Shown: positions 55,982-60,215 of the stretch, in pieces | Numbering within the stretch: the first letter of the stretch is position 1 | Layout of the letters: each line of letters starts with the position of its first letter | Origin: a virus | Taxonomy: Duplodnaviria; Caudoviricetes | Length of the DNA: 64,000 nt | Reading direction: 5' to 3' (one strand) | Virus record (IMG/VR): IMGVR_UViG_3300027805_000006 | Program-made: the position numbers and the translations under genes | The notes under the pieces: generated by a model | Databases searched by the model: none | What the model saw: the letters and a program-made list of their open reading frames with translations, nothing else | Told to the model about the DNA's origin: nothing

Positions 55982-56063
55982 TTGATAAATATGGGCCCCA
56001 AGTACTTATAGACGGTGTCTATGTTCCCATTCACGTTCCAAGCTTTCGCTCCGAAATTTTGTG

Positions 56064-56150
56064 CTCCGTCCCGAGGTTACGATCCTCGCATGCATTCCTG
56101 CATCCTTCCGGTTAACAGCCGGAGGCCTTCACCAAGCCAGCCCGGACGGA
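56064..56150 (-). tRNA. tRNA-Asn(GTT) with long variable arm and ATCGTAA T-loop
   Basis: TCCGTCC/GGACGGA-G; TCCGG-CTGTTAA-CCGGA; extra ATGCA-GGAA-TGCAT hairpin; no CCA. Confidence 0.8.
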
Positions 56151-58600: not shown

Positions 58601-58606
58601 TTAATG

Positions 58607-58644
58607 TAGGCCGTGTTGGTTTCGAACCAACGACCAAGATTTTA
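58607..58644 (-). pseudogene. 3' half of an interrupted tRNA
   Basis: TAAAATCTT-GGTC-GTTGG-TTCGAAA-CCAAC-ACGGCCT-A; acceptor strand complements GGGCCGT at 59090-59084. Confidence 0.8.
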
Positions 58645-58662
58645 CACTAGTAAAAATAATTT

Positions 58663-58737
58663 TGGTAGGCCCAGTTGGAATCGAACCAACACTCCGGGCA
58701 TTATGAGTACCACGCTTTACCATTAAGCTATAGGCCC
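58663..58737 (-). tRNA. tRNA(CAT), Ile2-like or elongator Met, nested inside the split tRNA
   Basis: GGGCCTA/TGGGCCT-A-CCA; loop CT-CAT-AA. Confidence 0.88.
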
Positions 58738-59052
58738 ACAAAAATTATCTCTACGAATACTTTCGATATGCTCTTTACGAATTACTATCAGTTTTTTTGG
58801 AAAATACTTCCATTTTGCTTTATCTCGTTCTGTTTCGTATCCTTTTACTTCAATGTAAGCATCTAAATTGGGCAAATAGAAATCTGGAAAATATTTACGA
58901 ATGCCATTCCATTCATATTCAAACCATTCGTTTGAACGAATTATTGGTATTGATTTTTGAACACAATATTGATAGAATTCAAGTTCCCATTTTCCTTGAA
59001 ATTTTATTCCATCGTATATTATTTGTTTAGTTCTACCTCTATTAGATGAGGT
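58723..59052 (-). CDS. PD-(D/E)xK-type endonuclease, probably lacking its N-terminus
   Basis: KYFPDFYLPNLDAYIEVKG; the only in-frame ATG (59130) lies inside tRNA-Arg; the stop lies inside tRNA(CAT). Confidence 0.75.
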   Translation of the reverse strand, partial: TSSNRGRTKQIIYDGIKFQGKWELEFYQYCVQKSIPIIRSNEWFEYEWNGIRKYFPDFYLPNLDAYIEVKGYETERDKAKWKYFPKKLIVIRKEHIESIRRDNFCGPIA

Positions 59053-59090
59053 TTTTAGAGTCCTCTGCTCTCCCACTGAGCTAACGGCCC
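59053..59090 (-). pseudogene. 5' half of an interrupted tRNA (anticodon reads CTA)
   Basis: GGGCCGT-TA-GCTC-AGTGGGA-GAGC-A-GAGGA-CTCTAAAA. Confidence 0.8.
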
Positions 59091-59097
59091 GAAATAA

Positions 59098-59173
59098 TGG
59101 CGCGACTGGAGCGATTCGAACGCCCGACATACCGGGTAGAAGCCGGTTATTCTATCCCCTGAATTACAGTCGC
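59098..59173 (-). tRNA. tRNA-Arg(TCT)
   Basis: ACCGG-CTTCTAC-CCGGT; CCA. Confidence 0.92.
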
Positions 59174-60128: not shown

Positions 60129-60215
60129 TGGAGTGAGCGACAGGGCTCGAACCTGCATTACCTTTCGGTTTTTACGGATTTGCAATCCGTTGCGTAACCA
60201 TTCCGCCACGCTCAC
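60129..60215 (-). tRNA. tRNA-Cys(GCA) with long variable arm
   Basis: ACGGA-TTGCAAA-TCCGT, then an extra ACC-GAAA-GGT hairpin; U73; CCA. Confidence 0.88.

Follow-up and report, generated by a model that had tools for sequence, protein, structure and literature searches.

A decayed nuclease-plus-tRNA cassette very probably lodged in the anticodon loop of a phage tRNA(CAU) gene

A tRNA gene split within a phage tRNA array

We analysed a stretch of 64,000 nucleotides (nt) of phage DNA (hereafter, the window), belonging to an 85.8-kilobase (kb) virus fragment from IMG/VR (IMGVR_UViG_3300027805_000006), in which a transfer RNA (tRNA) gene lying in a minus-strand tRNA array is divided into two halves by a 413-nt insert. 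This locus very probably represents a decayed mobile cassette located within the anticodon loop (between C34 and A35) of a resident tRNA-Ile2-type tRNA(CAU) gene. As far as can be judged from the alignment of related loci, the complete cassette would include, in this order, a ribosome-binding hairpin, a nuclease gene (NUMOD3 plus PD-(D/E)xK), a complete tRNA(CAT), and a short spacer. As shown by the same comparisons, the cassette moves between unrelated phages and always enters the same tRNA position (34/35), and the tRNA pieces flanking it are scars, eroded to differing extents according to the lineage; moreover, it brings along a complete tRNA(CAT), within which the nuclease frame terminates.

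The 85.8-kb fragment is only 24% complete according to CheckV, which suggests that the source phage is very large. ARAGORN called 16 tRNAs in the window. Reading along the minus strand, tRNA-Lys and tRNA-Arg are followed by the 5' half of the split tRNA, by the insert (59052-58640), and by the 3' half; the features of the locus are the following:

59058-59090, minus strand: putative 5' remnant of the resident tRNA-Ile2-like tRNA(CAU), positions 1-34, ending in C32-U33-C34 (CTC); from the sequence and the similarity with the tRNA of locus L011
59045-59057, minus strand: TAAAAACCT, the left terminus of the cassette, which an internal deletion of some 205 nt has joined directly to mid-gene nuclease sequence; from the alignment with loci L012 and L017
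58723-59052, minus strand: 5'-truncated homing-endonuclease gene with a predicted PD-(D/E)xK domain, 109 codons plus TAA; from the reading frame, the profile matches, and the similarity with protein P0002
58663-58737, minus strand: intact cassette-borne tRNA(CAT); the final codons of the nuclease, stop included, fall within its first 15 nt; from ARAGORN and Rfam (tRNA, 63.3 bits)
58645-58662, minus strand: cassette spacer, AAATTATTTTTACTAGTG, kept 3' of the cassette tRNA in many family members; from the family comparison
58605-58644, minus strand: putative 3' remnant of the resident tRNA, with a degenerate loop and anticodon strand TAAAATCTT, the variable loop GGTC (both from the sequence), the T arm GTTGG-TTCGAAA-CCAAC, the acceptor strand ACGGCCT, the discriminator A, and then CA; from the 7/7 pairing with the 5' remnant

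The 5' half (59090-59053, minus strand) reads GGGCCGT TA GCTC AGTGGGA GAGC A GAGGA CTCTAAAA, and the 3' half (58639-58605, minus strand) reads TCTT GGTC GTTGG TTCGAAA CCAAC ACGGCCT A CA. Their acceptor strands pair at seven positions out of seven, with six Watson-Crick pairs and G1.U72, and one copy of TAAAA is found at each junction (59057-59053 and 58644-58640). Once joined, the two halves give a 72-nt tRNA, called as tRNA(cta) by ARAGORN, whose anticodon stem is composed of G.U, A-U, G-C, G.U, and A x A (two Watson-Crick pairs, two G.U pairs, and one mismatch); the split gene was not called when ARAGORN was run in intron mode. The original prediction on this DNA, made from its letters, had pointed to the complementary acceptor strands, to the TAAAA pair, and to a joined tRNA with a CUA triplet and a weak anticodon stem, and all of these are borne out. 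The same holds for a nuclease frame stopping inside an intact tRNA(CAT) (TAA at 58725-58723, 15 nt inside the tRNA at 58737-58663) and, as a statement on the sequence, for the GGGCC/GGCCT ends and the GTTGG/CCAAC T stem that this tRNA shares with the two halves. The absent C of the CCA end was considered as a sign of decay and discarded as uninformative, other tRNAs of the phage carrying the window (the window phage) also being devoid of an encoded CCA.

An intact sister cassette in a T4-like phage

A protein search retrieved 197 relatives of the nuclease, most of them 160-190 amino acids long. The closest one is P0002 (166 amino acids), to whose residues 58-166 the window nuclease is 97% identical. 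The P0002 gene belongs to a T4-like phage (locus L012), where the genes for the sliding clamp, the clamp loader, RegA, and HSP20 lie on one side and the gene for deoxycytidine monophosphate (dCMP) deaminase on the other. The left part of L012 consists of a tRNA 5' half (GGGCCGG...GCAGA CTC), then TAAAAACCT, then an 11-base-pair hairpin formed over a Shine-Dalgarno sequence (-13.3 kcal/mol, z -5.0), and then the ATG of a 166-codon gene. This gene overlaps by 15 nt the same tRNA(CAT), followed by the same spacer, and the right part is represented by TAAAATCTTG and by a 3' half, GTGGG-TTAGAAT-CCCAC CCGGCCT A CCA.

The nucleotide identity between the window and L012 is 96.0% (288/300) for the nuclease part, 98.7% for the cassette tRNA, and 93.9% for the spacer, whereas it drops to 80.6% for the 5' exon and to 75% for the T arm plus acceptor. 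The exon differences are compensatory (T7-A66 vs. G7-C66; GTTGG/CCAAC vs. GTGGG/CCCAC), and the genes flanking the cassette are unrelated between the two phages. The same element is therefore found at a homologous site with flanks more diverged than the element itself. Since the cassettes are 94-99% identical and the exons 75-81%, the cassette appears to be much younger than the tRNA genes hosting it, in agreement with the mosaic pattern expected of a mobile element.

Compared with L012, the window copy has undergone a single internal deletion of about 205 nt, which fused TAAAAACCT to codon ~58 and took away the ribosome-binding hairpin, the ATG, and 57 codons, including the NUMOD3 motif.

A family of related loci

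The search of IMG/VR with an alignment of 13 relatives disclosed at least 194 loci; 80 were retrieved and the 61 non-redundant ones were analysed. In 50 out of 61, the nuclease stop codon is overlapped or abutted by a tRNA(CAT). The overlap is 10 nt long in 26 loci, with the stop corresponding to U8-A9-G10 of the tRNA (TAG in 23 cases and TAA in three), 15 nt long in eight loci, with the stop in the D loop, and 38-39 nt long in four loci, with the stop corresponding to U36-A37-A38.

A clear remnant of a tRNA 5' half (AGCAnnnnACT[C/T]) precedes the hairpin in 33 loci; at one extreme the half is complete, and at the other just 12 nt are left (AGCAGTAGACTC, found in L031 and L033). Wherever the junction is readable, this remnant ends in ..ACT(C/T), that is, C32-U33-C34 of a CAT loop, and the base that follows is T or C, never the A of CAT. 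Many loci also keep, beyond the cassette tRNA and the conserved spacer, a 3' piece of varying length, which usually includes just the variable loop, the T arm, and the acceptor strand. Hence, the left junction is constant across the family and the right-hand one is variable. A TAAAA target-site duplication shared by the whole family was considered and rejected: the repeat occurs only in the window and in L012, and the right junctions differ elsewhere. In L017, for instance, CTC is directly followed by TAAAAA at the left junction, with no repeat on the right.

Seven loci exhibit halves that are complementary at seven positions out of seven, together with the adjacent T arm, and share six distinct acceptor pairs among them (GGGCCGT/ACGGCCT, GGGCCGG/CCGGCCT, GGGCCTA/TGGGCCC, GCCCCTT/AGGGGGC, GGGCCTC/GGGGCCC, and GCCCCCT/AGGGGGC; the pair of L028 is the same as that of L024). 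Matched halves at seven loci exceed what chance would give, and, since all seven pair 7/7 with six distinct acceptors, the halves of each locus come from one tRNA gene.

The family is also present in cultured phages (Kuttervirus, Lazarusvirus, Karamvirus, and Aeromonas phages), and matched halves were found in the loci of CkP1, PX29, and Apostate; in CkP1 the halves are present and the 3' anticodon strand is lost. As for single loci, the nuclease of Aeromonas phage PX29 (NC_023688; L006:1592-2360) is broken by several stops and frameshifts and its annotation covers the last 102 codons only; the PX29 exons still pair perfectly (acceptor GGCCCCG/CGGGGCC, anticodon stem AGCGG/CCGCT). In phage IME341 (NC_055742; L111:398-1094), the nuclease frame extends across the first half of a tRNA-Arg(TCT) and terminates at U36-A37-A38 of its loop; further upstream come an incomplete tRNA remnant, GGTAGAGCAGTCAACTTC, and a tRNA(CAT) that is intact; therefore, the family is not strictly bound to tRNA(CAT) on its 3' side.

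Empty sites and mobility

The nuclease relatives of published phages are more distant (41-47% identical), and two of them could be compared with phages carrying an uninterrupted tRNA gene at the same site. The Kuttervirus PhaxI has a 213-amino-acid nuclease that overlaps a tRNA-Met by 10 nt, a type with a sporadic distribution (6 out of 327 related records). Phage SJ3, whose flanks match those of PhaxI at 99.3% over the shared stretch, harbours at the nuclease site an intact tRNA(CAT), GGCCCCG...GTCGA CTCATAA TCGAT...CAGGGTC ACCA. PhaxI retains the first ~27 nt and the last ~6 nt of such a tRNA and, between them, the hairpin, the nuclease, a different tRNA(CAT), and a 62-nt spacer.

Similarly, Apostate and eight relatives (Acinetobacter phages; 9 out of 110 records) carry a 209-amino-acid nuclease, its gene being inserted precisely at the C34/A35 boundary of a tRNA; Lazarus has this tRNA uninterrupted, with the annotation tRNA-Ile. 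The flanks and the outer parts of the exons are the same in the two phages, whereas the D loop, the anticodon stem, the variable loop, and the T arm differ and yet pair, a pattern that is indicative of co-conversion from a donor. In this subtype, the nuclease stop corresponds to U36-A37-A38 of the loop and the insert does not contain any replacement tRNA. In both comparisons, then, a sporadic element faces uninterrupted empty sites in relatives. Concerning the annotation of Apostate (NC_049491), its split tRNA-Ile(CAT), with exons at L005:1629-1664 and L005:2330-2371, is unannotated, and an intact Ile2-like tRNA with a CTCTAAA loop, located directly upstream, is annotated as tRNA-Pyl.

Identity of the target tRNA and origin of the apparent CUA anticodon

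The closest intact relative of the split tRNA is the tRNA of L011, which is about 90% identical across both halves, bears the loop CTCATAA, and matches the tRNA-Ile(CAT) of Escherichia coli over the full length. Furthermore, in contigs from two metagenome runs (X1 and X5) the 5' half runs on into CTC-ATAATCCTTTGGTCGT, which corresponds to a CAT loop followed by a stem complementary to GAGGA. According to these data, the target was a tRNA-Ile2-like (lysidine-type) tRNA(CAU), and the anticodon CAU can be assigned to it because the empty alleles of SJ3 and Lazarus, as well as L011, read CAT. Such a tRNA is a suitably conserved target, since a tRNA-Ile(CAU) is present in all five T4-like genomes compared (PMC1524935). 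The original prediction had read the joined loop as an amber anticodon; this does not stand up to the comparison, the target reading CAU and L017 having the same left junction without the right repeat. The CUA triplet is a junction artefact, in which C32-U33-C34 of the target (CTC) is followed by the first bases of the cassette (TAAAA).

A separate observation concerns the uncultured huge phage LR756511 (L007:1501-1594), which possesses a CAT tRNA with the acceptor and the D arm of the window split tRNA; in the 5' part of its anticodon loop this tRNA has 21 additional nt that form a hairpin, ACGGGTTTATCAACCCGCGAT, and ARAGORN miscalls it as a 94-nt tRNA-Pro.

The nuclease

The insert embeds a 109-codon frame with the motifs WELEF...FPDFY...EVKG. 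This frame matches DUF1064 with 24.7 bits, exactly at the family cut-off, and phrog_15137 ('endonuclease') only over profile positions 117-223 of 236, the restriction of the latter match to the C-terminal part being a first hint of truncation. Residues E80, P113-D114, E125, and K127 are invariant in 104 relatives and are all present in the window frame. The AlphaFold model (predicted local distance difference test, pLDDT, 86.5) has an N-terminal helical part and a C-terminal alpha/beta domain. No solved structure matches the nuclease by sequence; by fold, the C-terminal domain matches, with middling Z scores, the catalytic domain of I-Bth0305I (Z 7.7), Vsr (7.3), and TnsA (6.9), and, further, Bax1 (6.9), Hjc (5.0), and I-Ssp6803I (only 4.3). 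On the basis of the invariant residues and of the model, the nuclease can be assigned to the PD-(D/E)xK superfamily. A specific kinship with I-Ssp6803I was considered and rejected, there being no sequence match and only a weak fold match.

NUMOD3 is recognised in P0002 at residues 33-46 (22.1 bits, cut-off 20.4), in the region deleted from the window copy. The window nuclease thus lacks the start codon, the ribosome-binding site, and the NUMOD3 DNA-binding region; no ATG, GTG, or TTG start belonging to its frame occurs within the 413-nt insert, and an intact, expressible nuclease gene was not found in this copy. For the absence of a start codon, either a relic or translation from an RNA overlapping the tRNA had been put forward; the former holds, because about 205 nt were deleted relative to L012, and the latter is not retained. 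Since the hairpin, the start codon, and the N-terminal DNA-binding part are gone, the window nuclease has most likely lost its activity and the cassette its mobility. What remains of the split tRNA is a scar without function, and the cassette tRNA(CAT), which found no match in a comparison with E. coli tRNAs, is probably the sole working part of the window copy.

Proposed mechanism and alternative explanations

The idea of a selfish cassette that cuts a tRNA gene at the anticodon and replaces it, advanced in the original prediction, is supported by the near-identical cassettes found in different exons, with the sporadic nuclease, with the intact empty sites, and with the co-conversion of the exons. 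During a mixed infection, a phage devoid of the cassette would have its uninterrupted tRNA(CAU) gene cleaved by the nuclease, within the anticodon stem-loop or close to it; at the DNA level, this stem-loop would be an inverted repeat suited to a dimeric PD-(D/E)xK enzyme. The genome carrying the cassette would then provide the template for repair, with the tRNA halves as homology arms, and the cassette tRNA would be spared because its D arm and its anticodon stem are different. Expression of the nuclease might be kept low both by the hairpin that covers the ribosome-binding site and by a stop codon open to removal by RNase P.

Some points weigh against this interpretation. The cleavage, the position of the cut, and the immunity of the cassette tRNA are steps that we infer. 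The cassette tRNA may be of the Met or of the Ile2 type, so that the replacement of the lost function is putative. What is left of the nuclease frame has no internal stops and keeps 97% identity to the intact protein, which points to a recent deletion, and some residual nuclease activity might arise from an unusual start. For the Apostate type, with its perfect exons and no replacement tRNA, the interpretation of the pieces as scars is less secure. Lastly, no empty-site relative of the window phage was found, the nearest intact alleles belonging to other phages or organisms: exact-pattern scans of IMG/VR for either tRNA half gave no matches, and the search via the neighbouring deoxyribosyltransferase gene gave only two distant loci; L108 shares just a few genes with the window phage. 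Uninterrupted alleles, to be sought in related phages according to the original prediction, were thus recovered with a CAT anticodon in SJ3, Lazarus, and L011, but not in any close relative of the window phage.

It had also been suggested that the halves become joined as RNA, with no group I ribozyme involved, and so give a functional amber-suppressor tRNA(CUA), which we consider extremely unlikely. ARAGORN does accept the joined sequence as tRNA(cta), with intact acceptor, D, and T stems; Apostate, TS3, and DLP_6 have intact tRNA(CUA) genes whose loop likewise reads CTCTAAA, and the Apostate insertion is nucleotide-precise, with perfect exons. However, the joined anticodon stem, which has two Watson-Crick pairs in the window, has none in L012, and in L017, L024, L035, L056, and CkP1 the 3' piece begins at the variable loop, so that an anticodon arm is impossible there. 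The TAAAA of the left junction belongs to the cassette, as L017 possesses it with no right repeat, and the empty alleles read CAT. What the window contains is a gene interrupted by 413 nt, with a poorly paired stem and CAT in its empty alleles, which is not a functional amber-suppressor tRNA(CUA). Group I introns contain a ribozyme core (P3-P9), follow an exon whose last base is U, and themselves terminate in G. Neither the window region nor L005, L006, L012, L017, L109, or L111 matched Intron_gpI (Rfam) at E<=1; the reading frame, the tRNA, and the 18-nt spacer take up the insert, with no room for a ribozyme core. A group I intron was rejected on the lack of a core match and on a 5' exon that ends in C34. 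A freshwater metatranscriptome yielded contigs identical to pieces of the window, part of the nuclease frame included, and no sequence of the joined halves was detected in metatranscriptome or DNA contigs, which is weak evidence, as it comes from four runs stored as contigs; a 95%-identical 'relative' turned out to be the T4-like phage of L016. A recoding of TAG that would need a suppressor was likewise discarded: TAG is an ordinary stop in the contig, ending 12 out of 99 long frames, and reading it through barely changes the coverage and does not lengthen the frames. Split or protein-spliced tRNAs of the archaeal type have a bulge-helix-bulge where the pieces meet and depend on a splicing endonuclease and an RNA ligase; RtcB and T4 Rnl1 gave no match in the 86-kb fragment, a weak negative given that the fragment is 24% complete and that the Rnl1 control matched nothing anywhere. 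On the whole, the lack of any Watson-Crick pair in the joined stem of L012, of a group I core, and of a joint in the contigs led us to abandon the rejoining.

The two halves might instead derive from two neighbouring paralogous tRNAs, each truncated by a separate deletion, the acceptor strands matching via paralogy. The cassette tRNA does share GGGCC/GGCCT and GTTGG/CCAAC with the halves, and five out of seven acceptor pairs would match in any paralogue. Nevertheless, the seven loci, with six distinct acceptors, all pair 7/7 around the same cassette; PhaxI/SJ3 and Apostate/Lazarus directly disclose one interrupted tRNA gene; a single intact tRNA (L011) matches both halves at about 90%; and it would be unparsimonious for two independent deletions to have stopped at one and the same anticodon position across many lineages. 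This origin is therefore highly improbable. Somewhat less remote, and still unlikely, is that the tRNA pieces and the truncated nuclease are functional, the pieces pairing into a tRNA-like closure of the nuclease message that guides its processing by RNase P or at the 3' end, and the catalytic domain being made alone from an atypical start. In its favour, the ..ACTC end is kept even where only 12 nt are left (L031 and L033), and the stop lies inside the downstream tRNA in most loci, so that RNase P cleavage would generate a stop-less message; the nuclease frame is also open upstream to an ATG at 59130 within tRNA-Arg, and pieces identical to the nuclease region occur in the RNA library. On the other hand, the remnant lengths vary widely across the family, fitting neutral decay; the window copy is devoid of the ribosome-binding hairpin and of the NUMOD3 region of its intact relatives; chance would leave the roughly 26 upstream codons free of stops about once in three (estimate (61/64)^26 = 0.29); and contigs from an RNA library cannot show transcription. 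A related and very unlikely idea is that in the intact members the tRNA pieces are not mere scars and pair into a tRNA-shaped precursor recognised by the tRNA-processing enzymes of the host. If so, the precise exons of the Apostate type might be excised and re-ligated by proteins, which would represent a ribozyme-less tRNA intron at 34/35 in phages of bacteria; in addition, a deletion between short repeats, such as the TAAAA pair, could possibly turn a split tRNA(CAU) into a tRNA(CUA) and seed amber-suppressor-like tRNAs beside these nucleases.

Relationship to known systems

The decayed-cassette interpretation can be compared with several known systems. The nearest working analogue is SegB, a free-standing GIY-YIG homing endonuclease encoded in the T4 tRNA cluster, which recognises a T-psi-C motif and spreads itself and the neighbouring tRNA genes in mixed infections (PMC2330249). 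Both are homing endonuclease genes in phage tRNA arrays; however, segB sits between tRNA genes, whereas the cassette encodes a NUMOD3 plus PD-(D/E)xK enzyme, sits inside one tRNA gene at 34/35, which it divides into two halves, and carries a replacement tRNA(CAT) to which the nuclease frame is fused.

A group I intron of the Synechocystis tRNA-fMet(CAU) gene encodes I-Ssp6803I. This is a PD-(D/E)xK homing endonuclease (PMC3384342) and resembles the cassette in tying a nuclease of that fold to an anticodon-loop insertion in a tRNA(CAU). It rides a self-splicing intron and does not possess the NUMOD3 N-terminal module that the family nucleases carry, whereas the cassette has no group I ribozyme and function would be restored, if at all, by a second tRNA. 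In phage Aeh1, the nrdA gene is split by mobE. 'Fractured genes' split by free-standing homing endonuclease genes, with split inteins, have also been described (PMC2677866). In these cases, too, a free-standing nuclease gene lies within a conserved host gene and leaves two collinear pieces, but the pieces still yield a working product, by trans-splicing inteins or subunit assembly, whereas the cassette brings a substitute gene. Integrase-driven elements insert in tRNA genes and restore the disrupted end. They likewise target a tRNA gene and carry tRNA sequence that keeps a functional gene at the site; they rely on a site-specific recombinase, and of the tRNA that they enter just the 3' part is duplicated, whereas the cassette would use a nuclease, enter at the anticodon, and bring a complete, different tRNA(CAT).

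A full-text literature search did not retrieve any published description of nuclease-plus-tRNA cassettes interrupting tRNA genes. Homing endonuclease genes in conserved genes ride a self-splicing intron or intein, or sit beside their target; the entry at a tRNA(CAU) anticodon with a spare tRNA, the nuclease frame ending on conserved bases of that tRNA, appears to be a third route. From the point of view of annotation, it would explain orphan tRNA halves, spurious suppressor or 'Pyl' calls, and the unannotated split tRNA-Ile of published phages. It also bears on the turnover of phage tRNA arrays and represents a source of nucleases that may recognise tRNA-gene sequences, and phage pairs in which it can be tested are at hand (PhaxI/SJ3 and Apostate/Lazarus).

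Other features of the tRNA arrays

Three further tRNAs of the window, all on the minus strand, are 87-90 nt long with extra variable-region arms: tRNA-Ile(TAT) (43323-43412), tRNA-Asn (56063-56150), and tRNA-Cys (60129-60215). The 90-nt tRNA-Ile(TAT) recurs, with 92% identity, in an otherwise distant phage (L108:9824-9913), where it adjoins another copy of the cassette. The minus-strand region 56635-56704 matches the Rfam tRNA model with 38.4 bits (E 1.7e-5), is not called by ARAGORN, and may represent a further odd or decayed tRNA. Moreover, the same contig harbours, outside the window (G000:C1:3334-3750), a permuted transfer-messenger RNA (tmRNA) with the tag ANDAFFGGELRLVA, called by ARAGORN. 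Finally, a second, unrelated homing-endonuclease-like gene of the SegE type (GIY-YIG; L108:10873-11514; faint Pfam match) is located about 300 nt downstream in the same tRNA array of L108; phage tRNA arrays seem to collect nuclease genes.

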